DNA of 64,000 nucleotides from Thermoleophilia bacterium (GCA_027493445.1 JAOSKU010000001.1:1878822-1942821); one strand, 5' to 3'; shown: positions 3,123 to 47,365, counted from the first letter of the stretch. A program made the numbers and translations. The notes: a model not told the origin generated them from the letters alone.

Positions 3123-3730
3123 TTCTCGTACCTTTGCGCTCCTCTTCTGACAGCTCCAACAACGCGTGCCGGACTCCCTGCCACGATTGAACGGGCTGGA
3201 ACAGCCGAGGTCACAACCGCCCCAGCACCGACGACCGCACCCTCGCCCACATGCACTCCTTTGAGTATGATCGCACGCATTCCGACAAACACGTCGTTCT
3301 CAATGACCACCTCAGCAGCGAGTACGCCCCGCGTCTCATGCCGTCGCGGCACTATATGAACAGGGTGCAAGTCGGTGTCGGTGATCACGGAATCGGCGCC
3401 GAGCATAACTCGGTCACCGATGGTGACAGAGGACGCACAACAGACGGACGCCCCGCTCATGCCTACGTCGTCGCCGATCAAGATCGTGGCCCCTGGCTGC
3501 AACGCATCAATGACGCACGCGTGGGCTACACCCACCGCGGAGTACGTGCTTTCGGAGATCAAAACGAGGTTTCGCCCGGCGTGCACGTGAGCCCCTTTGA
3601 CACAACGCAGTATTGGCCAGCCATAAACCGAGACCCCGTTCCCAAAGGTGAATCCTTTCCTGCGTCTGACCAATGCAGACTGCACCCAGCGGGTCACCCG
3701 CCGTGCTCCTCGTATCCTATACAAAATCAC
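3119..3730 (-). CDS. hexapeptide-repeat (left-handed beta-helix) sugar O-/N-acetyltransferase
   Basis: Repeated [LIV]G..x..[LIV] hexapeptides (IGDDVGMSGASV, IGDRVMLGADSV, IENDVFVGMRAIILKGVHVGEGAVVGAGAVV). Confidence 0.7.
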   Translation of the reverse strand: MILYRIRGARRVTRWVQSALVRRRKGFTFGNGVSVYGWPILRCVKGAHVHAGRNLVLISESTYSAVGVAHACVIDALQPGATILIGDDVGMSGASVCCASSVTIGDRVMLGADSVITDTDLHPVHIVPRRHETRGVLAAEVVIENDVFVGMRAIILKGVHVGEGAVVGAGAVVTSAVPARSIVAGSPARVVGAVRRGAQRYEK

Positions 3731-18257: not shown

Positions 18258-19280
18258 ATGCCGCAACCCGACACCGCGGGAGCCAGCGAAACCCCTTACT
18301 GTCCAACGACCATCCTGGTGACTGGCGGCTGCGGCTTCATTGGCTCCAACTTCATCAGGCACATTCTCGCCAGCGATTCCACTGTCAGTGTGGTGAATCT
18401 GGACGCCCTCACCTATGCGGGCAACCCCGACAACCTGGCTGATGTCGAGGCCGGTTTCCCCTCACGCTATCGCTTTATCCATGGGGACATCCGCCACCAT
18501 GGGGCCGTCCGCAAAGCCATGGCGGACTGCGACACCGTGGTCCACTTTGCCGCGGAGAGCCACGTCGACCGCTCCATCGTCCATGCCCGTGACTTCATCA
18601 CCACCAACGTCGAGGGTACCTACGTGCTGCTCGAGGAGGCGCATCGGGCGGGCATTCAGCGTTTTCTCCACATCTCAACGGATGAGGTATACGGCTCCAC
18701 CGAATCCGGGTCGTTCAGCGAGGATGACCCTTTGGCCCCCTCCAGCCCCTACTCGGCTTCCAAAGCGGCTGCGGATCTCCTGGTGCTATCGTATGGCACT
18801 ACCTTCGACCTGCCTGTTCTCATAACCCGCAGCACCAACAACTTCGGACCCTACCAGTTCCCGGAAAAGCTGATCCCCTTGTTCATCACTAACTTGCTGG
18901 AAGGATCGGTCGTACCTTTGTACGGGGACGGCCTGAACGTGCGCGACTGGATCTACGTGCTGGACAACTGCCGGGCCCTCGATACGGTACTTCGTCTGGG
19001 TGCGGTCGGCGACGTCTACAACGTGGGGGCGGCTAATGAGGTCACCAACCATTACGTCACCACCTCACTCCTTGAGTCGCTCGGCGCTGGCGAGGAGATG
19101 GTCAACTACGTTGCGGACCGTCCCGGACACGACCGCCGCTACTCGGTCACGACTCACAAGGTCCGGGGGCTAGGCTGGGCGCCAACCCGCGACTTCCGCC
19201 AGGCTCTATCAGAGACCGTCTCTTGGTACGTCAACAATCCGCATTGGTGGAAAAGGATGAAGGAGCGCGTGGCTTTCTAG
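18258..19280 (+). CDS. rfbB: dTDP-glucose 4,6-dehydratase
   Basis: ILVTGGCGFIGSNFIRHIL...LTYAGN...DICD region and the YSASKAA catalytic motif. The ORF is open from 18009, but the upstream 83 codons are unlike RmlB. Confidence 0.85.
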   Translation: MPQPDTAGASETPYCPTTILVTGGCGFIGSNFIRHILASDSTVSVVNLDALTYAGNPDNLADVEAGFPSRYRFIHGDIRHHGAVRKAMADCDTVVHFAAESHVDRSIVHARDFITTNVEGTYVLLEEAHRAGIQRFLHISTDEVYGSTESGSFSEDDPLAPSSPYSASKAAADLLVLSYGTTFDLPVLITRSTNNFGPYQFPEKLIPLFITNLLEGSVVPLYGDGLNVRDWIYVLDNCRALDTVLRLGAVGDVYNVGAANEVTNHYVTTSLLESLGAGEEMVNYVADRPGHDRRYSVTTHKVRGLGWAPTRDFRQALSETVSWYVNNPHWWKRMKERVAF

Positions 19281-19341
19281 GGCTGGAGAACTCGCCAGGT
19301 CTTCCACAGAAGTGGCCGGGCAAAACTGGACAGCCCTTTAG

Positions 19342-19689
19342 GTGATACCGCTCCCAGGCAGACGACCAGGAGGAGTATGCACGATGCACAGAAGACCGAG
19401 ACGGAATCACTCCCCGGCGTTCAAGGCCAAGGTGGCCCTGGAAGCCATCAGGGGTGAAGAGCCCCTCATCGTGATCGCTGAGCGGTTCGACGTGCACCCC
19501 AACCAGATCACCAAGTGGAAGCGGCAGCTCCTCGAGGGCGCAGCGACTGTCTTCGGGGAGGAAGAGAAGGCCAGGGAGGAGGGGCCCAGCGTCGCCGAAC
19601 TGCACGCGAAGATCGGCGAGCTCACCATGGAGTTGGGTTTTTTGTCCGGTGCGCTCGGTCGCATGAGCGGCCCGAGCGCAAGGCGATGA
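19342..19689 (+). CDS. IS3-family transposase OrfA (HTH)
   Basis: See the mobile-element entry above. Confidence 0.7.
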   Translation: MIPLPGRRPGGVCTMHRRPRRNHSPAFKAKVALEAIRGEEPLIVIAERFDVHPNQITKWKRQLLEGAATVFGEEEKAREEGPSVAELHAKIGELTMELGFLSGALGRMSGPSARR

Positions 19690-20050
19690 TCGACCGGACC
19701 TATCCTCTGTCGATCACGAGGCGGGCCGAACTTCTTGATCTCTCCCGCTCGAGCGTCTGCTACCAGCCCGCTCCGACGAGCGAGAGCGACCTGACCTTGA
19801 TGGCCGCCATGGACGAGATCCACCTGACCTACCCTTTTTATGGGATGAGGCGGATCCGGAACGAGCTCCGTGACCGGGGCTTCGTGGTGGGGCGCGGGCA
19901 CGTGGCCACCCTCATGCGGAAGATGGGCGTCCAGGCGCTCTATCCCAAGCGCCGGCTGTCCCTGCCGCACCCGGGGCACAGGATCTACCCCTACCTCCTG
20001 CGGGGGAGGGACATCGCCTGCGCCGGGGAAGTATGGGCGGCCGACGTCGA
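19342..20050 (+). mobile_element. IS3-family insertion sequence, 5' portion only. It carries orfA, a -1 slippery site and the N-terminal third of orfB, and is truncated by group II intron insertion at 20050/20051
   Basis: OrfA (19342-19689) has the HTH with FKAKVALEAIRGEEPLIVIAERF. The heptamer TTTTTTG lies at 19636-19642. The OrfB frame gives ERKAMIDRTYPLSITRRAELLDLSRSSVCYQP...GEVWAADV and then loses homology before the DDE W..DITY motif. Confidence 0.7.
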
Positions 20051-21068
20051 GCGCCACGAGGCGCTCTCCTACCGAGTGGAGGTGAAAGGACTCCACCGGC
20101 GGGCTGTCGCAGCAGCCCGCGCGAAGCTGAGGGCAGCCTGACCCTGGAGACGCAGGGAAGGGTGGCAAGCAGCCCTGACAACGACGGGACGGGTCGGCAC
20201 TGCCAGACGGCCCGGGTCCGGCAAGCAAGGCGGAAAGGTGTACGTAAGAAACCAGTGCTATAAGACCCCTAAAGTCGCACCACCAGCTCGAACCTGGCGG
20301 ATCTGGGCTGGGAAGCGGCGCGTACCCGCCGAGGCGGGGAACTCCTCTGCCGGTTCACATGTCGCTGGCAGGGAGGCCACACTGAAGAACTGCGGCGTAG
20401 GTGTGGCAAGGCCGCAGGGGCATAGCTGGGCACCTCCTCCGCCGATCGGTAGAAGAGTGAACGTGGGAACCCTCCGACGTCGCCCTCCCGCCCCGTGGTG
20501 GTGGGCAGGCCCGTCGTCGGCCGATGGCGCCGGAGGGGGCGGAGCCTGCATAGTAGTCCGAGGACGGGAAAGCCGTCCACATGGCGAAGGCAGGCAGCGA
20601 GTTCGCAGCAGAAGGACTGAAAAACCAGGAGGTCGCCCGTGAACACGGGTGCACCGTGGCCGAGCCTCCACGAGGCGGAAGCCCGGGTACTGGAGATTCA
20701 GACCAAGCTGCACCGCAGGGCCGGCGAAGACGAGGGTCGCCGGTTCGATGATCTTTTCAACCTCGTCTATGACCCGGCCTTCCTGCTCATAGCCTGGAGG
20801 CGGGTCCGGGAGAACAAGGGCGCCCGCACTGCTGGCGTCGACGGTGAGTCCGCTTGCAGCATCGAGACTCGTCGCGGCGTCGAGGCCTTCCTTTGCGATC
20901 TGCGCGGCCAACTCAAGGCCCGCACGTTTTGGCCTCAGCCTGTACGGGAGCGACTGATTCCCAAACCGGGGTCGCGGAAGCGACGTCGTCTGGGCATCCC
21001 CACCGTGCGGGATCGAGTAGTGCAGGCCGCCTTCAAGCTGGTGCTCGAACCCATCTTCGAGGCGGATT
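20051..21068 (+). mobile_element. group II intron copy 1, 5' part. Ribozyme domains I-III are followed by the start of the domain IV intron-encoded protein (RT domains 0-2, CDS 20639-21068). It is interrupted by the second intron
   Basis: The RT fragment shows GVDG, RLIPKPGSRKRRRLGIPTVRDRVVQ and LEPIFE. About 590 nt upstream (20051-20640) is paralogous to 21069-21670. The 5' end GAGCGCCACGAGGCGCT resembles the GUGCG consensus. Confidence 0.65.
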
Positions 21069-22527
21069 GTGCGCCACGAGGCGCTGTTTCACCGGGGGAG
21101 GTGAAAGACCTCCCTGGCTGGCCGTCGCAGCGGCCGGTTGGAAGCTGACGGCAGCCCGAGCTTGGGAGTGCAAGCATCGGGTGGGAGCAGCCGTGACGAC
21201 GTAGCGGAGGCGTGGTACTGCCAGACACGCCGGCCGCGCTAGCAAGATGGGAAGGGATAGCGATCGCGAACGAGTGCCTGACGCCCCTTGATTCGAAAAC
21301 GACCCAGAACCTGGTGGATGCGGGTCGGGGGCAGCGCTGCGGCGGCCGTAGTTTGTGGCCGCTGCTCTTGGGTGCCGCTTACTAGGTGCGGCGCGCGAGA
21401 CCGTGGGGAAGGGCTGCGGCGTACCCACGGTGAGGCTGCAGGGGTAAAGCTCGGTCCCGCCCCCGTCAACCGGTGGGCAGTGAACGTGGGAACCCTCCCG
21501 GTATCGCCCTCCCCGAAGGCCAGACAGGTCGTCGGCGGGCAGGCGCACTGTCAGCTGATGGTGCCGGGAGGGGGCAGAGCCCTCGTAGTAGTCGGAGCCC
21601 GGGAGAGCCGGGCACAGGGCGAAGGAGGGCAGCAGACTTGGCACGCGGTCCGGTCGCAAGGAGGTCGGCGGTGAATACCGTCGCGCCGTGGCCGTCGGTC
21701 TTGGAGGCCGAAGCCCGGGTACTTCATGTCCAGACCAAGTTCCACAAGTGGGCAGCAACCGATCAGACTCAGCAGTTCCACGATCTGTTCAACCTCGTTG
21801 GTGACCGGGCGACCCTGGTGGTGGCCTGGCAGCGGATACGGACGAATCGTGGCTCCCGCACGGCTGGAGTGGATGGAATCACCCGCCGCGACGTCGAGCA
21901 ACGCGTCGGCGTTGAGCGGTTTTTGGATGGCATCCGCTTGTCCTTGAAAGACGGGTCGTATCGGCCCCAACCGGTCCGTGAGCGCATGATCCCCAAGGCT
22001 GGCGGCAAGCTACGTCGGCTGGGGATCGCCACGCTGCGCGACCGGGTCGTGCAGATGGCGCTGAAGCTCGTGCTGGAACCGATCTTCGAGCCAGACCAGT
22101 ACCGGTCGAGCTACGCCTACCGGCCGGGACGCCGCGCTCAGGACGCCGTCGCCGAGATTGTTCACTTGGTGAACAACGGCTATGAGTGGGTGGTCGAGGG
22201 TGATGTGGAGGCCTGCTTCGATTCCATCGAGCATCGCTTGGTGGTGAAGCAGTTGCGTACTCGCCTCACCGACCATCGAGTCCTGGGGCTGTGCAAGGCG
22301 TTCCTGAAGGCCGGGGTGCTCACTGAACTGGGGCGGCTCCAACGAACGGTCACCGGCACGCCGCAGGGGGCATTATCTGCCCACTGTTTGCTAACCTGGC
22401 GCTGCACGCCGCTCTCGACGAGCACTTTGCCTCGGTGTGGGCGGCGCAGTCGAGGTATCGCAACCAGCGCACCTACCTGCGCTCCAAGGGGCAGGCCACC
22501 TATCGACTCATCCGCTATGCGGACTTA
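21069..22527 (+). mobile_element. group II intron copy 2, 5' part. It starts GTGCGCC inside the RT gene of copy 1. Its own RT (CDS 21671-22527, RT0-RT5) has a frame slip at the G run 22366-22370 and is broken in the YADD motif by an IS
   Basis: The RT shows GVDG, RLGIATLRDRVVQ, SYAYRPGRRAQDAV, ACFDSIEH and GTPQG, and after a one-base frame correction GIICPLFANLALH...RYAD, before the sequence is replaced. SD AAGGAGG precedes GTG 21671. Confidence 0.7.
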
Positions 22528-23940
22528 TGTTGAGCTCAACATAAGTCCGTGGGGGTATCCATTTAACCGGAGTAATCGAGATCGGCAGTTCTCCACGGGC
22601 GGTTCGCTGGAGGGCGCTCCAAGCTCGGGGGATGCCCGCGCGCCCGGGGTGGCGCAGGCGGTACTGCCCGGGGCCGCGGGCTGGCGATGAGGTCCTGGTA
22701 GCGCACCGGGTCGTGGCCGACGGCGAGATCGAGCAGCCGGTAGAACAGCATCCCGCTTGAGATTCACGGCGGCCAGTTCCTCGTCGGGCACCTTGATGCC
22801 CTTCTCGTAGGTGTTTTGGTCGAGTTCACAGCGCACCCGCAGTCCGGAGCGGGTCACGGTGGCCGCGATCAGGTTGACGATGACTTCGTGACTGATCAGA
22901 GGTTTGCCCCGCCAGTTCTGGGTGATGAACGAAAACAGGCGGTGCTCGATCCGGTTCCACTTGCTGGTGCCCGGGGAAGGTGAGAGACCCCGATCGTGAG
23001 CCCCGTCTCGTTGGCCAACTTCTGCAGTTCGACCTTCCACAGCCGGAGACGGTAGCCGTTGCTTCCCCCGCAGTCGGCGGTGATGAGGAGTCGGTGGGCG
23101 TCGGGGTACCTCTCTTTACCCATCGAGTGCCACCAGCGGAGAATGCTCTGCACGGCGAAAGCCGCGGTATCGTGGTCGGTGCCCACGCTGACCCAGCCCA
23201 GGTTGCCCGCCAGATCGTAGATCCCATAGGGGTTCGCCTTTCCCAACTCGGGGACCATGAAATCATGCACGCGCACCGCTTCTGGATCCCCCTTCGGACG
23301 CAGTTCTCGGCCCCCGTTCTTGAAGTCGCCCACCAGCTCCTTCTTCTTGGTGTCCACGGAGATGACCGGGTCGTTGCGGGCTTGGTACTCCTTGACCTTC
23401 TCGTTTAGGTGTCGAAACTGAGCGTCTCGATCGGGATGGGACGAGCCTTCCCGGGTCTTGCGGTTCCCCTGGAGGCTATAGCCCATGTCGTGCAGCAGTT
23501 CGGCGACCATGCGATGGCTCGTCTGGTGCCCCATCCGCGTGAGCTCATCGGCCAGGCGGCGAACGCTCTTTAAGGTCCAGCGCAAGGGCGACTCCGGATC
23601 GCCTCGGGTCTCCGGTTCCACCAGGCGCTCCAGGTCGTCGCGAAGGGTCGGATCCGTGTCCACGGTGCGCTTGCGTCCGCCGCCCTCTCGCCGGATGCGC
23701 CCGCGCGGCGCGAGGTCCGGATGGGCAAGCTCCCGAGATCCCGCCGTGATCGCCCGCCGCGAAACCCCCGTCACCCGGGCCACGAGCGTGTTCCCGCCCC
23801 GGCCGGCGGCCAACGCTTCCGCCGCGGCCACCAGGCGTCGGCTACGCTCATCTAGGAAGGGGGCCAAAAGCTCGAATCGTTCTTTGATGCCGGCCTCTCC
23901 ACCCATGCGGTGAAGCGTAGCACGGTCGGGCCGGTTTCGC
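22522..23940 (-). mobile_element. ISAzo13-family insertion sequence, truncated at the transposase C-terminal end. The transposase CDS is 22525-23906 with a frame slip at 22973-22976
   Basis: N-terminal HTH region, then VSHLPPGTSKWNRIEHRLFSFITQNWRGKPL, which is the ISAzo13 hallmark (YPPGTSKWNKIEHRLF). The expected distal FHGEWNY motif is absent. Confidence 0.65.
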
Positions 23941-24080
23941 TACTGTTATTTTGTGACAGGCCCTTAGAGGCGCCTAGCCTCTCGCTCTAGAAGCGTTCTC
24001 AAGGCTACAAACCGCGATCGGGCCCGAGCGAGCAGGGCTCCGTGCCCCCTCGTTATGCAGGTACGGTCTCCACTAATTGA

Positions 24081-25030
<950 letters not shown>

Positions 25031-25085: not shown

Positions 25086-25500
25086 CTAGCCCGATAGGGC
25101 CTCAGCCAGCCTGGCCGCCCGGGCCTTCTTGAAGGCGATGAGCCCGCAGGCCAGCATGAGCAGGGCCAGGTGGATCTCCTCCTTCTTGGACCAGCGGATG
25201 AGCAACGCCCGGTTACGATTGAGCCAGGAGTGACAGGCCTCCACCACGAGAGCGGCGGGCCCGCCAGCCGGGGGTCTTCGCCTTCTCTTGGATCTCCTCC
25301 CCCCGGCTACGGATGTGGGGGTGAGTTTGCAGTCGGGCAGGAGGGCCCGCACCTCGGCGCAGTCGTATCCCCGGTCCAGGCAGAGACCTTGAGGTGCTTC
25401 TTGCGTGGGCTCGGGCCGGGGGCGATGGGGATGGAATCAAGCGTGGCCTTCAGGAGCAGGTGGTCGTTGCGGTTGGCCCCGATATCTTATGGCCCTGGGC
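25086..25500 (-). pseudogene. IS5-family transposase C-terminal fragment (frameshifted and truncated)
   Basis: LDRGYDCAEVRALL... and ...VEACHSWLNRNRALLIRWSKK...LACGLIAFKKA are IS5-family C-terminal motifs, split over two frames. Confidence 0.5.
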
Positions 25501-26098: not shown

Positions 26099-27268
26099 CT
26101 ATCTGGCGATGCACTCCGGAAGCAGCGATCTCATTCTCACCAGGTTGTAGGCGGCGGCCGTGAACTGGAAGATCCATCGGGCCTTGGCCCGCCCGCGGTG
26201 CCGGAGCTTGTGAAGCAGTCCGACTGTCTTCATCCAGCCGAAGGCCTCCTCCACCAGCTTGCGCTTCTTCTGGCTGAGGGCGTATCCCTCCCACCGTGTC
26301 GTGCGGCCATCGATGGCCGAGTACTTCTCTTTGCGAGCCACATGCGGGGTAACAACGTTAGTCCGTAGTTCGCCCACGAAGTCCTTGGTGTCGTAGTTCT
26401 TGTCGGCTGCGACAGTGAACCGGCCCTTGGTCTTTTTGCGCTCCTCCTTCACCAGCTCAAGACCCATCTCCCGCTCGGCGGTACCGGTGGCCCGGGAGAG
26501 ATCGGCCTGGACGATGAGACCGTGGCGGTTCTCGGTGAGGAGATGGCCGGCATAAGCGAGCCGGGCCGCTTCTCCGGGAGAGTGTTTGGCAAGAAGAGCT
26601 TCCGGATCGGTGGTGGAAGCGTGGGTGTCATTCCGGCGCCGCTCGCCGTGGAAATCCACACTCGGGTTGCGGTCGCGGCCTGCGCTTTCCGAGACTGGCT
26701 CGGCGGGGCTCGGGTCCTCCCCTGCACCCGGGTCATCTTTGCCTGGCCCCCGGCCGCCCTCCTGGCCCTCGGCCAATTCCTGTTTGGGCCGGAAGCTCTT
26801 GAGGGAGGCCGCCGCTTCCACCAAGGTGCCGTCCAGGCTGAAGTGCTCCCGGGAAAGGAGTTTCCCCGCCTGGGCCTGCTTCCTCACCTCCAGGAAGAAG
26901 GCCTCGGCCACCTCGCCCTCAAGCAGGCGCTCCCGGTTTTGGGTGAAGGTGGTGGGATGCCAGACGGGCTCGTTTAGATCGAGGCCCACAAACCAGCGAA
27001 AGAGCAGGTGATACTCGAGGTGTTCGCAGAGCTTGCGCTCCGAAGGGATGGCGTAGAGCACCTGAATAAGCAGGGCTCGCAGAAGGTACTCGGGCGGGAT
27101 GGAGGGGCGGCCGGCTTCACAGTAGATCTTGTCAAAGAGGGGGGAGAGACCGCAAAGCGCCTTATCGGTCATCTTGCGGATGGCCCGCAAGGGGTGATCT
27201 TTGGGGATGCGCTCCTCCAAGGGACCCAAGAATACAAACGACGGCTGCCTTGCCTCTTCTCCCCGCAT
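26099..27268 (-). CDS. IS5-family DDE transposase (DUF772 N-terminal region plus DDE_Tnp_1), apparently intact
   Basis: 389 aa. LRALLIQVLYAIPSERKLCEHLEYHLLFRWFVGLDL (DUF772) and C-terminal ...DKNYDTKDFV..., ...GWMKTVGLLHKLRHRG... Confidence 0.7.
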   Translation of the reverse strand: MRGEEARQPSFVFLGPLEERIPKDHPLRAIRKMTDKALCGLSPLFDKIYCEAGRPSIPPEYLLRALLIQVLYAIPSERKLCEHLEYHLLFRWFVGLDLNEPVWHPTTFTQNRERLLEGEVAEAFFLEVRKQAQAGKLLSREHFSLDGTLVEAAASLKSFRPKQELAEGQEGGRGPGKDDPGAGEDPSPAEPVSESAGRDRNPSVDFHGERRRNDTHASTTDPEALLAKHSPGEAARLAYAGHLLTENRHGLIVQADLSRATGTAEREMGLELVKEERKKTKGRFTVAADKNYDTKDFVGELRTNVVTPHVARKEKYSAIDGRTTRWEGYALSQKKRKLVEEAFGWMKTVGLLHKLRHRGRAKARWIFQFTAAAYNLVRMRSLLPECIAR

Positions 27269-44593: not shown

Positions 44594-47365
44594 TCAGCTT
44601 GGTTCGCCCGTCACCGTCACACTTCCCTTCTGGATCCAGCCCGAGTCCAGCCCGCCGTCGTCTTCGGCGCGCAGCCACACGGTCTTCTGACCGAGGAAGG
44701 TGCTCTTGAAAGTCATGGACACCGCGAGCGTGAGGGGGGTGCCCGACTTGACCATGGAGCTCTGAGCGAGATCGATGGCCACCCGCTCGTTCTCCAGAGT
44801 ACCGGTTGTGCCCAAGGTGCCGCTCAACCAGGCCGTGTTGGCCGCGTTTCGCAGAAAGATCTTGTTGCGGTTCTCGTCTAGGTAGATGTACACCCCGCCG
44901 ACCCCGGTGATCGCCGTGCCCACGATCATCCGCATCCGCTTCAGGTTGGTCGCCCCGTTGGGATCGGCAAAGACGGCGGTGAAGATCTGGGCCTGCCCGG
45001 CCGGTAGATCTGCGAGCACGGCCGGATCCAAGGAGACGACCGCGGGCGCGCCCGTGGGCGCGTCGGCGGCAAAGGAGGCCGCGATGGTGTGATCGGCGCC
45101 GATGTCGGCGAAGTCGTAGGTGCCGATCGGCCCCACCGAGGCTCCGTCCACCACCACGTCGGAGATGTGGTAGCCGGCGTCGGGGGTGATGGTGAAGGTC
45201 AGGGAGGCCCCCGGGTTCACCGTCTGGGCGGTCGCCGGGGATATCTGACCGCCGGGGCCGGCGGAGGGGGTGATGGTGTAGGTGGTCGCGGCGGCGGCAA
45301 AGGAGGCCGCGATGGTGTGATCGGCGCCGATGTCGGCGAAGTCGTAGGTGCCGACCGGCCCCACCGAGGCTCCGTCCACCACCACGTCGGAGATGTGGTA
45401 GCCAGCGTCGGGGGTGATGGTGAAGGTCAGGGAGGCCCCCGGGTTCACCGTCTGGGCGGTCGCCGGGGATATCTGACCGCCGGGGCCGGCGGAGGGGGTG
45501 ATGGTGTAGGTGGTCGCGGCGGGCGCCGCGGTCACCGTCACACTTCCCTTCTGGATCCAGCCCGAGTCCAGCCCGCCGTCGTCTTCGGCGCGCAGCCACA
45601 CGGTCTTCTGACCGAGGAAGGTGCTCTTGAAAGTCATGGACACCGCGAGCGTGAGGGTGGTGCCCGACTTGACCATGGAGCTCTGAGCGAGATCGATGGC
45701 CACCCGCTCGTTCTCCAGAGTACCGGTTGTGCCCAAGGTGCCGCTCAACCAGGCCGTGTTGGCCGCGTTTCGCAGAAAGATCTTGTTGCGGTTCTCGTCT
45801 AGGTAGATGTACACCCCGCCGACCCCGGTGATCGCCGTGCCCACGATCATCCGCATCCGCTTCAGGTTGGTCGCCCCGTTGGGATCGGCAAAGACGGCGG
45901 TGAAGATCTGGGCCTGCCCGGCCGGTAGATCTGCGAGCACGGCCGGATCCAAGGAGACGACCGCGGGCGCGCCCGTGGGCGCGTCGGCGGCAAAGGAGGC
46001 CGCGATGGTGTGATCGGCGCCGATGTCGGCGAAGTCGTAGGTGCCGATCGGCCCCACCGAGGCTCCGTCCACCACCACGTCGGAGATGTGGTAGCCGGCG
46101 TCGGGGGTGATGGTGAAGGTCAGGGAGGCCCCCGGGTTCACCGTCTGGGCGGTCGCCGGGGATATCTGACCGCCGGGGCCGGCGGAGGGGGTGATGGTGT
46201 AGGTGGTCGCGGCGGCGGCAAAGGAGGCCGCGATGGTGTGATCGGCGCCGATGTCGGCGAAGTCGTAGGTGCCGACCGGCCCCACCGAGGCTCCGTCCAC
46301 CACCACGTCGGAGATGTGGTAGCCAGCGTCGGGGGTGATGGTGAAGGTCAGGGAGGCCCCCGGGTTCACCGTCTGGGCGGTCGCCGGGGATATCTGACCG
46401 CCGGGGCCGGCGGAGGGGGTGATGGTGTAGGTGGTGCCCGTGACCTGGACCACGTAGGTGTCGCCGCCCCCCATGTCAGCGTAGTCGCTGGGGGACACCT
46501 CTACGAGCACCGTTCCCGCCGCGTCCATGACGCGGAGGCGGTCCAAGGGAAAGAGCAGGCTCTGGCAATCGACCACCGCTGCCCCAGCGCTCTCAGTGGC
46601 TGAGGCCGTCTTTCCGCCCGAGGCGGCCTCCACCAATCCCCCGGCGGGAACTCCCTGGACCGTGACGTGATAGTCGGTGCGGGCCTCGAGCCAATCTGCG
46701 TCACCCGCCTTGGTGCTCGTCCCCCATCCGACCCGGTCAACAGCAACTTCGTTGTGGAGCCCTGCATCGACGACACCGTCGAGGCTGGAGCCGAAGCGCG
46801 CCACGATATGCCCGGTCTCGGTCTTGAGCAGCCTCGCGTGAGTGTAGACGTCCGCCGTCATGGGTTCAGCGCTGGACACGCCCAAATCGGTGGACGTGCC
46901 GCCGGAGTAACGGCCGACACTCCAAGGCCCCCCGGGAGTGTTCACGTCGTATTCTAGGCGGTACCCGGCCCAGTTGTTCGAGCCTGACTTCGCGGTGGCA
47001 TGCGCCAGATACAGGTAGATATTCCCGCCATTCGCGGGGTCGGTATTCCGAGTCCGCGCGGTCACCACTCGCGCGCCCGTCTGCCCGAGACGGGCCACCT
47101 TGTCTGATGTAGTTGTGTTGTGGACCAGCGCACCCCCCGTGACTGCGAAACCCGTGAGTGATCTGATCGCCTGGTAGTTGAGGAGGGTGTCGCTGTCGAA
47201 ATCATCGAGCTCGATGAGTCCGGATGAGAGACGGGTCATCGTGGCCGTGGCTGCAAGCGCCGGAGTCGCCGCGACTCCGATGGCCGCCAGCAGCACGATC
47301 ACCAGAACCACGGCCACCTGGCCGGAGTGCCGCCAAGTGCGCCGAAAAGCCGCTGCCAGTGTCAT
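44594..47365 (-). CDS. secreted cell-surface protein. It has four divergent InlB-B-repeat (PF18998-like) domains and two copies of an unknown ~140-aa domain
   Basis: Signal peptide MTLAAAFRRTWRHSGQVAVVLVIVLLAAIGVAATPALA. Four repeats of TYTITPSAGPGGQISPATAQTVNPGASLTFTITPDAGYHISDVVVDGASVGP.GTYDFADIGADHTIAASF. SD GAGGAGG before ATG 47365. The ORF is open to 47398. Confidence 0.7.
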   Translation of the reverse strand: MTLAAAFRRTWRHSGQVAVVLVIVLLAAIGVAATPALAATATMTRLSSGLIELDDFDSDTLLNYQAIRSLTGFAVTGGALVHNTTTSDKVARLGQTGARVVTARTRNTDPANGGNIYLYLAHATAKSGSNNWAGYRLEYDVNTPGGPWSVGRYSGGTSTDLGVSSAEPMTADVYTHARLLKTETGHIVARFGSSLDGVVDAGLHNEVAVDRVGWGTSTKAGDADWLEARTDYHVTVQGVPAGGLVEAASGGKTASATESAGAAVVDCQSLLFPLDRLRVMDAAGTVLVEVSPSDYADMGGGDTYVVQVTGTTYTITPSAGPGGQISPATAQTVNPGASLTFTITPDAGYHISDVVVDGASVGPVGTYDFADIGADHTIAASFAAAATTYTITPSAGPGGQISPATAQTVNPGASLTFTITPDAGYHISDVVVDGASVGPIGTYDFADIGADHTIAASFAADAPTGAPAVVSLDPAVLADLPAGQAQIFTAVFADPNGATNLKRMRMIVGTAITGVGGVYIYLDENRNKIFLRNAANTAWLSGTLGTTGTLENERVAIDLAQSSMVKSGTTLTLAVSMTFKSTFLGQKTVWLRAEDDGGLDSGWIQKGSVTVTAAPAATTYTITPSAGPGGQISPATAQTVNPGASLTFTITPDAGYHISDVVVDGASVGPVGTYDFADIGADHTIAASFAAAATTYTITPSAGPGGQISPATAQTVNPGASLTFTITPDAGYHISDVVVDGASVGPIGTYDFADIGADHTIAASFAADAPTGAPAVVSLDPAVLADLPAGQAQIFTAVFADPNGATNLKRMRMIVGTAITGVGGVYIYLDENRNKIFLRNAANTAWLSGTLGTTGTLENERVAIDLAQSSMVKSGTPLTLAVSMTFKSTFLGQKTVWLRAEDDGGLDSGWIQKGSVTVTGEPS
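44612..46447. repeat. direct tandem duplication of 2 x 921 bp, near-identical (one substitution seen, at 44733 vs 45654)
   Basis: 44886-45092 and 45807-46013 translate identically on the opposite strand. Copy boundaries lie at GTCACCGTCACACTTCCC, about 44612 and 45533. Confidence 0.85.

Follow-up and report, generated by a model that had tools for sequence, protein, structure and literature searches.

The 64,000-nt stretch of DNA analysed here comes from a Thermoleophilia bacterium (GCA_027493445.1, JAOSKU010000001.1:1878822-1942821), and we refer to it in its full length as the window. Directly downstream of rmlA- and rmlB-like genes, the latter with its stop codon at 19280, begins a stretch rich in insertion sequences (IS), extending to about 27.3 kb, whose start is a nest of mobile elements. 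From left to right, this nest consists of the 5' part of an IS3-family IS, the 5' parts of two group II introns that we call A and B, a short terminal motif of RIT type, the end of an IS1595-family IS and a truncated ISAzo13-family IS. An initial annotation had described positions 19342 to 23940 as a four-level nest, in which the IS3 would be split by a group II intron, this intron by a second one, and the latter by the ISAzo13-family IS. This stacking is genuine, and it goes deeper than that description had it. The IS3-family element is indeed interrupted by an intron, whose reverse transcriptase (RT) open reading frame (ORF) is interrupted by a second, related intron, but the word split overstates the case, since only the 5' halves are present; the fourth level is not the ISAzo13 copy, because RIT-type and IS1595-family ends come next and the ISAzo13 element is truncated and joined at a deletion scar. 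We propose, with good confidence, that the locus represents the left half of a mobile-element stack which grew as one element after another inserted at a specific site, and which a single deletion later truncated.

The IS3-family element and intron A

The IS3-family fragment (19342-20048, plus strand) is recognized by the Pfam families HTH_Tnp_1 and HTH_21 and by the NCBIfam IS3 profile, of which positions 2-81 and 84-223 of 369 are matched. Its orfA runs from the ATG at 19384 to 19689, and an intact -1 slippery heptamer, T_TTT_TTG (19638-19644), joins it to the frame of orfB, whose N-terminal part reads up to ...EVWAADV, that is, up to the W-A-A-D-V codons of the IS3 DDE motif. The fragment keeps orfA, the slippery site and the HTH_21 part of orfB, and is without the rve/DDE domain and the right end; the left inverted repeat should lie somewhere within 19281-19383. 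Homology to orfB ends at 20048: full-length relatives (46-57% identity), found by a phmmer search with the window fragment, continue ...QVWAxDITYIPMARGF, and the window reads ...EVWAADV^ERHEAL (here and below, a caret marks a junction or break). The initial annotation was right that the frame breaks where the intron starts; the coordinate that it gave, 20050/20051, has to be moved, since the break lies at 20048^20049 and the intron's first nucleotides, GAGCGCCACGAGGCGCT (20049-20065), start 2 nt further left. Here and at the second intron junction, the apparent boundary is not normal internal sequence, as the flanks are contiguous in full-length relatives that lack the intron.

The 5' part of intron A (20049-21068, plus strand), assigned through its RT profile match, the pairing of its exon-binding sites (EBS) and the covariation of its domain I, starts with GAGCG at 20049. 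It comprises the ribozyme 5' domains upstream of the RT ORF (20049-20638) and codons 1-143 of the latter (RT-A, 20639-21068), which end in ...LEPIFEAD^ and match TIGR04416 over profile positions 4-95 only (E = 3e-26). The putative target in the 5' exon occupies 20037-20048 on the plus strand. There, EBS2 of the intron (GUCGC, 20274-20278) pairs 5/5 with the intron-binding site (IBS) 2 GCGGC at 20037-20041, and EBS1, (C)AUGUCG at 20358-20364, pairs 6/7 with IBS1, CGACGU(C), at 20042-20048. In three relatives (L008, L011 and L012), EBS1 is GAUGUC and perfectly paired with GACAUC.

These three introns and a fourth one (L023) are the nearest relatives of intron A, with 75-79% nucleotide identity, and all four, each from an independent genome, reside in IS3 elements. 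A scan of the fetched loci for the 5' motif placed their GAGCG starts directly after LWVADI^ (L008 and L012), VWSWDI^ (L011) and IWIWDA^ (L023), the counterpart in the window being VWAADV^GAGCG. In L012 the intron ends with ...CCCCTAC and the exon resumes with ACCTAC...; splicing restores D-I^T-Y-CRTFAGWVYAAFVIDVYSRRIVGW, and the 3' exon is the IS3-type DDE region TYCRTFAGWVY... The loci L011 and L008 are alike, with the motif intact after splicing. Judged from these alignments, the junction between the IS3-family element and intron A is a recurrent homing site at the D(I/V)^TY codon boundary of IS3-family orfB, and not a chance insertion. The same group shares an unusual 5' end: A at position 2 is found in all five IS3-resident introns (window 20049, L008 3409, L011 3410, L012 3382 and L023 3434), the closest relatives outside IS3 (L024 and L009) start with GTGCG, and other members of the clade with TTGCG, CTGCG or GCGCG (L015, L030, L033, L005, L029 and L010). 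Because it is common to the four other IS3-resident relatives, the GAGCG start is evidently a trait of the lineage rather than a sign of decay.

Intron B and its target in RT-A

The 5' part of intron B (21069-22524, plus strand), assigned by its RT profile match and by relatives with Rfam domain V/VI, starts with GTGCG at 21069. That the motif found at the beginning of intron A reappears at 21069, where RT-A loses homology, had been pointed out before and is borne out by our data: GTGCGCCACGAGGCGCT spans 21069-21085 and RT-A ends at 21068. The two intron segments are also paralogous, as had been claimed, 20049-21068 and 21069-22100 aligning over their full length of about 1020 nt; across the initial 640 nt the identity is about 65%. 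The ribozyme 5' domains upstream of the RT ORF occupy 21069-21670, and RT-B (21671-22524) covers profile positions 3-184 of TIGR04416 (E = 4e-62); its last codon, GAC at 22522-22524, closes the sequence R-Y-A-D. A frameshift within 22366-22375 (GTPQG^GIICPLFANL) had been overlooked by the initial annotation. The RT-B ORF shares 99% identity with a protein that NCBI lists for a Thermoleophilia metagenome-assembled genome. Because they are truncated, both RT-A and RT-B stay below the full-length profile cut-off.

The target of intron B lies in RT-A at 21056-21068 (plus strand), in the codons F-E-A-D-(F), with IBS2 UUCGAG at 21056-21061 and IBS1 GCGGAUU at 21062-21068. EBS2 (UUCGAA, 21292-21297) pairs 6/6 with IBS2, and the segment that holds it, GAUUCGAAAAC (21290-21299), pairs with UUCGAR in all six independent occurrences of such introns that we found. 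The EBS1 loop ACUAGGU (21381-21387) has 4/7 positions paired; in L097 and L099, EBS1 is AGUCUGU and pairs 7/7 with GCGGACU. A hairpin loop near 21350 (AGUUUGU, 7/7 with wobbles) was considered as EBS1 and rejected, since the homologous loop of the relatives shows no covariation with the exon and the downstream loop does. Because of its 4/7 EBS1 and of the frameshift in its RT, intron B of the window appears to be a decayed copy.

The six occurrences are the window and five other contigs (L001, L002, L097, L099 and L100), in which B-type introns, 73-79% identical to that of the window at the nucleotide level, stand at the identical site. All these sites read ...TTCGA(A/G)GCGGA(T/C)T^GTGCG and code for LEP(I/V)FEAD^, and the host RTs clearly differ from one another. 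At the DNA level, the target can be written TTCGAGGCGGAYT^TC, or also TTCGAGGCGGACT^TC, and in its uninterrupted form, TTCGAGGCGGAYTTC (EPIFEADF), it is kept in the RTs of sister lineages. Every B-type RT examined has FEPDQY, FEPGQY or FEWDQY instead, with changes at IBS1 positions, the B-type counterpart of the target being TTCGAGCCGGACCAG. The locus L001 shows a complete twintron: its inner intron ends with ...CTCCAT and the outer RT resumes with TC-CTG... (F-LPCSFGFRPKRSAHDAL; F-LPCSFGFRP). In the window, the 5' junction EPIFEAD^GTGCG agrees with the uninterrupted sister RTs, and the 3' junction is missing. Taken together, the comparisons identify the junction between A and B as a recurrent homing site, not a product of chance, and as the dedicated target of lineage B, which appears to be specialised on the RT genes of related introns. 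Because their own motif is altered to FEPDQY, B-type RTs are probably not targets themselves, so that lineage B probably does not target itself. The concept of a safe-haven locus, by which the initial annotation had explained the successive invasions, is better replaced by site-specific homing, each intron standing at the canonical target of its lineage in unrelated genomes.

The twintron of L001 (2509-6634; GCA_037024815.1, a metagenome-assembled genome) is apparently intact, with an outer intron that has an Rfam D1D4-4 match and its own domain V/VI, and an inner B-type intron that encodes a 488-amino acid RT and is followed by its own domain V/VI.

Nesting alone cannot tell whether B entered A inside the IS3 or whether an A::B twintron was formed elsewhere and retrohomed into the IS3 as one composite, in which case the order of nesting would not be the order of time. 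The mobility of composite twintrons has been discussed as a route of proliferation in Thermosynechococcus (PMC2882425). With B inside its RT ORF, A cannot make its own RT, which would have to be supplied in trans, and a composite RNA of 4 kb would have to fold and to reverse-splice; furthermore, the host introns of B-type introns differ between loci, which fits better with independent insertions of B. We regard the composite route as unlikely and retain separate insertions of A and of B, in that order.

A conserved RNA structure and a clade of endonuclease-less introns

The Rfam search of the nest, proposed with the initial annotation as a check of the group II assignment, did not return the domain I match: on 19300-24100, at the gathering threshold and at E <= 10, no group II model was matched, and chance matches to RNase MRP and Ms_IGR-4 were all that appeared. 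Formally, this is one of the outcomes that the initial annotation had named as refuting it. The negative result is uninformative, because domain V/VI is missing here and the D1-D4 models do not cover the clade, missing its full-length members too. Domain V/VI (RF00029) scores above the gathering threshold in three relatives of A (L008, L011 and L012) and two of B (L001 and L004); the one D1-D4 match among the relatives is in the unrelated outer host intron of L001, the 5' parts of both lineages' relatives being missed. Folding 21069-21670 as a single sequence was likewise uninformative (z-score -1.67).

Relatives were gathered through RT homology, and 25 introns, the two window copies among them, were aligned over their first ~430 nt. 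On this alignment RNAalifold predicted 105 pairs in 20 helices, one of which is the long-range stem that closes domain I. In this alignment 96.1% of the cells are paired, versus 35-45% when the partners are slid, and compensatory changes occur in 73 pairs, versus 22-33 after sliding; 0/500 shuffles reach the observed values. Because of this domain I covariation, the 5' segments of both introns must be considered a conserved structured RNA, and the EBS/IBS pairing adds to the support for a real ribozyme. The claim that no domain V/VI follows RT-B holds for the whole window: a tblastn search with a full-length RT, a scan for the domain V motif and Rfam found neither a domain V/VI nor a further piece of RT in the 64 kb. 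Neither intron of the window would be functional, because domain V/VI is absent.

The relatives form a clade whose RTs of 477-499 amino acids combine RVT_1 and GIIM, with no endonuclease domain on record. Several members sit at conserved motifs of other mobile-element genes: in IstB of IS21 after LDELG (L006), in the ISL3 transposase after DPFHV(V/A)R (L007 and L034), in IS66 (L016), in an IS5-type DDE_Tnp_1 transposase after RWVVER (L024) and in IS256/Mutator (L026); another one is in a DUF222/HNH gene (L064). Among the lineages that home into ISL3, IS3 and RT genes, EBS2 and the exon covary, the ISL3 form CGUGGA pairing with UCCACG. The L024 intron, which starts at 3398, contains a run of about 19 G some 115-140 nt from its start, which breaks a domain I helix; either it is a homopolymer insertion or it arose as an artefact of sequencing or assembly.

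The RIT-type end and the IS1595-family fragment

RT-B is cut in its YADD box, at R-Y-A-D (22524), as the initial annotation had stated; the agent that it had named, ISAzo13, is not the right one, because ISAzo13 homology stops at 22748. The two do not abut, and the DNA between them (22525-22747) consists of a RIT-type palindromic end and the 3' end of an IS1595-family element. RIT elements carry three overlapping tyrosine recombinase genes; ritA and ritC are flanked by an inverted repeat with which a palindrome overlaps (Van Houdt et al. 2012, PMC3414803). Such elements often reside within other mobile elements, a transposase gene being among the sites described (PMC3414803).

The 25-nt terminal motif, TTATGTTGAGCTCAACATAAGTCCG (22525-22549, no strand assigned), was assigned to this type from its palindrome and from RIT ends elsewhere. 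With the CGGAC of the RT it forms a perfect 30-nt palindrome (22520-22549). In Kutzneria (L064), the same motif follows the same Y-A-D codon in the RT of a different intron and lies immediately upstream of three tandem Phage_integrase ORFs, and it adjoins annotated tyrosine-recombinase trios on two plasmids, plasmid 2 of Aromatoleum EbN1 and one from E. coli; the palindrome TTATGTTGAGCTCAACATAA is next to recombinase trios in L064, L102 and L103. In the window itself there are no recombinase genes, the trace of the RIT element being its 25-nt terminal palindrome. The possibility that the 30-nt palindrome is a hairpin-repair scar was rejected, as the same motif occurs at the ends of RIT elements.

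Both in the window (22520-22549) and in Kutzneria viridogrisea (L064, 4797-4834), the palindrome stands after the first D codon of YADD, TAYGCSGAC^TTATGTTGA..., in two different RTs of two unrelated genomes, and its outer arm GTCCG is complementary to the CGGAC of the RT. RIT elements may, on these two cases, integrate site-specifically into RT active-site codons. A metagenome scan for the palindrome gave one match (L090), on an unrelated low-GC contig with no adjoining RT and no recombinase in view, which lends no support to YADD specificity. Compared with the elements described in PMC3414803, the window keeps 25 nt only, and a site at the YADD codons of group II RTs, of which we have two cases, is not mentioned there.

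If these observations are read jointly, an endonuclease-less clade of introns, whose typed loci are mainly from Actinomycetota, would have diversified as a parasite of mobile elements, the EBS of each lineage redirecting it to a conserved motif in a different mobile-element gene; lineage B would be a dedicated parasite of sister introns, and RIT elements might integrate specifically in the YADD box of the RT. We put this joint reading forward tentatively, judging it slightly less probable than its opposite.

The IS1595-family fragment (22551-22747, minus strand) is the 3'-terminal 197 nt of the element, assigned by homologues of its peptide and by the ends of intact copies. It holds the last 62 codons of the element's second transposase ORF and the element end ...TTAAATGGATACCCCC, which is the same in six intact copies. 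The 62-amino acid peptide has 110 homologues, several of them with PF12762 and located downstream of Zn_ribbon_IS1595/DDE ORFs.

The ISAzo13 copy and a probable deletion scar

The ISAzo13-family IS (22748-23964, minus strand) corresponds to positions 1-1218 of 1293, and the right limit of 23940 set by the initial annotation falls about 24 nt short of its end; from 23965 rightward the DNA is unrelated to ISAzo13. The transposase matches the NCBIfam ISAzo13 equivalog (E = 5e-132), and its gene, with an ATG at 23906, has a 1-nt indel near 22974 and is missing about 20 C-terminal residues. Intact copies (L085-L088) have 1293 bp and a 408-amino acid transposase and are 99.8% identical to the window from 23964 down to 22748. 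Relative to them, the window copy keeps the left inverted repeat and has lost the last 75 nt with the right repeat. A search for inverted repeats in 22450-24100 found no terminal pair for ISAzo13, because the right end is deleted. The same 4.6-Mb contig is on record as also encoding an intact ISAzo13 transposase of 408 amino acids (P0122).

The flanks of ISAzo13 read TAA/TTA, with CTAA^GGGCC...GGGCCC^TAAC in L086 and TTA right after the left repeat in the window (23964-23966), which suggests a 3-bp target duplication and hence leaves the IS end uncertain by 1-3 nt. On a metagenome contig (L089, 1-2785), an ISAzo13 element of 92% identity immediately precedes a group II RT gene (RVT_1, then GIIM) that shares its strand; this second association of the IS with an intron differs in arrangement from that of the window.

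The junction on the other side, 22747^22748, reads ...AAGCGGGATGC^TGTTCTACC... on the minus strand; the corresponding sequence is ...AAGCGGGATGCCTTCC... in intact ISAzo13 and, in the intact IS1595-like copies, ...CCGCGGGATGGTGTTCTATC... This three-way comparison shows that the two elements share the 8-nt sequence GCGGGATG at the junction (22740-22756, minus strand), internal to both and in the same orientation. The junction has the geometry of a microhomology-mediated deletion scar and, compared with the intact elements, is not an insertion. A transposition of ISAzo13 into the YADD box of RT-B, which would make a nest of four levels with its 3' parts simply out of view, was suggested by the transposase gene of this IS lying on the opposite strand less than 230 nt from the truncation point of the RT. 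Such a transposition has become scarcely credible, since homology to ISAzo13 ends at 22748, 223 nt from the end of the RT, in a copy without its own right terminal repeat, since this boundary is an internal microhomology junction and not a transposon end, with RIT-type and IS1595-family ends occupying the DNA in between, and since nothing RT-like lies beyond ISAzo13.

The 3' halves might also have been moved and not deleted, if recombination between dispersed IS copies had inverted or translocated a segment. IS-mediated inversions are common, several ISAzo13 copies exist in the genome (P0121 and P0122), and there is more IS debris in the window at 25.0-27.3 kb. The critical junction, for its part, does not lie between two copies of one IS: two different elements, co-oriented, meet there at a direct microhomology of 8 nt, as expected of a deletion. 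Furthermore, the missing RT or a domain V fragment is not found in the 64-kb window. For the IS3 element this search has its own limit: tblastn of the L012 IS3 orfB against the 64-kb window gave no match and missed even the window's own IS3 fragment, so that a query this divergent made no effective search for the 3' half of orfB. We hold such a displacement to be quite improbable and favour loss by deletion.

Finally, the stack might never have been one molecule, reads from different repeat copies having been joined into assembly chimeras. The source is a metagenome-assembled genome, ISAzo13 and the introns are multi-copy, and several short-read contigs break exactly at ISAzo13 or intron ends. 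However, each intron junction coincides exactly with a homing site that recurs independently and is matched by EBS/IBS pairing, which is not expected of chimeras; the genome of a cultured Kutzneria has the RIT motif after the same RT codon; assemblers join at long identical repeats and not at an 8-nt microhomology; and the source contig has 4.6 Mb. An artefact of this kind is very improbable, and we treat the stack as a genuine arrangement.

Reconstruction of the nest

From the identities of the elements, the exact junctions, the recurrence of both intron sites, the covariation of the RNA and the microhomology, we infer an order of events, retrohoming as the mechanism for the introns and a single deletion as the cause of the truncation. 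An IS3-family element would have inserted first, downstream of the dTDP-glucose dehydratase gene. An endonuclease-less intron of lineage A would then have retrohomed into its orfB between the D-V and T-Y codons, guided by EBS1 and EBS2, and a related intron of lineage B into the RT ORF of A, between GAT-T and TC of EPxFEAD^F, probably in this order. A RIT-type tyrosine-recombinase element would next have entered the YADD box of B behind its first D codon, and an IS1595-family element would have transposed 25 nt inside the RIT end. The ISAzo13 copy, placed further right, would never have inserted in the RT. Before the deletion the locus was probably arranged as IS3[ A[ B[ RIT[ IS1595 ] ] ] ] … host DNA … ISAzo13. 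The last event would be a deletion between the direct copies of the octamer, one in ISAzo13 and one in the IS1595-family element. It would have taken away the right end of ISAzo13, whatever host DNA lay between the two elements, the bulk of the IS1595-family element, the body of the RIT element and the 3' half of each of B, A and IS3. That a single deletion removed all the 3' halves is probable, on a search that covered the window. All the remaining parts are predicted to be inactive, because there is no domain V/VI, because RT-B and the ISAzo13 transposase are frameshifted and because the EBS1 of B is decayed.

Several points weigh against this reconstruction. Another part of the 4.6-Mb genome might hold the 3' halves, and this genome was assembled from a metagenome, in which repeat-rich junctions are prone to misassembly. 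The 5' GAGCG of intron A deviates from the GUGYG consensus, and no Rfam group II model matches the window even at the permissive threshold, although this can be explained. The EBS1 of intron B is mismatched to its own exon (4/7), which weakens the case for homing by this exact copy, and the RIT assignment rests on 25 nt and one full example at the same RT codon.

Comparison with known nested elements

Nesting of this kind is already known, and the window is a decayed, deletion-truncated case of a twintron in an IS, with particular targets and with added layers of DNA elements. It is established that bacterial group II introns are inserted in other mobile elements and are often truncated (PMC4424553). 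Twintrons are known from both bacteria and archaea (PMC4424553). Up to five nested introns, arising through site-specific homing into other introns, are described for Methanosarcina in the overview given by PMC4424553, and the nests of M. acetivorans (Dai & Zimmerly 2003, as summarised in PMC4424553) resemble the window in that recombination or deletion prunes them. Set against that summary, the present nest differs by its bacterial host (Thermoleophilia, Actinomycetota), by its target at the EPxFEAD^F codon boundary and by an IS3 element as its outermost host; here, moreover, DNA elements (RIT-type and IS1595-family) are stacked as well, and 5' halves are all that survives.

According to Mohr et al. 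(2010, PMC2882425), certain introns have adapted to a conserved insertion site that belongs either to an IS or to a different intron, and the twintrons and IS-resident introns of Thermosynechococcus elongatus (PMC2882425) follow the same logic as the window. The inner introns of T. elongatus are ORF-less and sit after the first and before the second ATG of the ORF in the host intron, whereas the inner intron here encodes an RT and sits in RT domain 2. RmInt1 of Sinorhizobium meliloti, in the account of PMC1802570, is like intron A endonuclease-less and homes into an IS transposase gene (ISRm2011-2) by EBS/IBS recognition. By comparison with that account, the host in the window is an IS3-family orfB and not the ISRm2011-2 transposase, the 5' end is GAGCG and the insertion falls exactly in D(I/V)^TY.

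The locus itself is dead DNA and has no consequence for the host. As a record it documents selfish elements that use each other as landing pads, both intron junctions lying in conserved mobile-element motifs that are hard to mutate; homing into such motifs would provide a target that is harmless, self-renewing and horizontally travelling. Lineage B would offer a natural and compact case of hyperparasitism and of target immunity in retroelements, and its target and guide sequences are short, well defined and directly testable. If RIT elements do target the YADD codons of RTs, they would be an added hyperparasite at the DNA level. For annotation, stacks of this kind mislead both gene callers and intron finders; here they escaped Rfam as well as the profile cut-offs, and the junction rules should help to recognize them.

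Other features of the window

To the right of ISAzo13, a 5'-truncated ORF fragment lies at approximately 24115-24294; Pfam gave no match, and a HigA-like reading (C-terminal half of an antitoxin) is unconfirmed. It is followed at 24411-25030 by overlapping ORFs of DUF433 (85 amino acids) and DUF5615/PIN-like (121 amino acids) type, arranged like a toxin-antitoxin pair. Three transposase sequences on the minus strand come next: the C-terminal remnant of an IS5-type transposase with a weak DDE_Tnp_1_2 match (25086-25352), an N-terminal fragment of a second, divergent ISAzo13-like transposase with 54% identity to residues 11-109 of P0122 (25544-25840), and a 389-amino acid DUF772/DDE_Tnp_1 transposase ORF (26099-27268). 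Further away, the region 44610-46443 contains near-perfect direct repeats, two of 300 nt with 100% identity, 921 nt apart, and four of 241 nt with 98-100% identity at spacings of 228 nt and 693 nt; these probably belong to a repetitive gene or to a recent tandem duplication. Finally, the G+C content reaches 71-74% between 48001 and 54000, compared with 60-67% in the remaining window.

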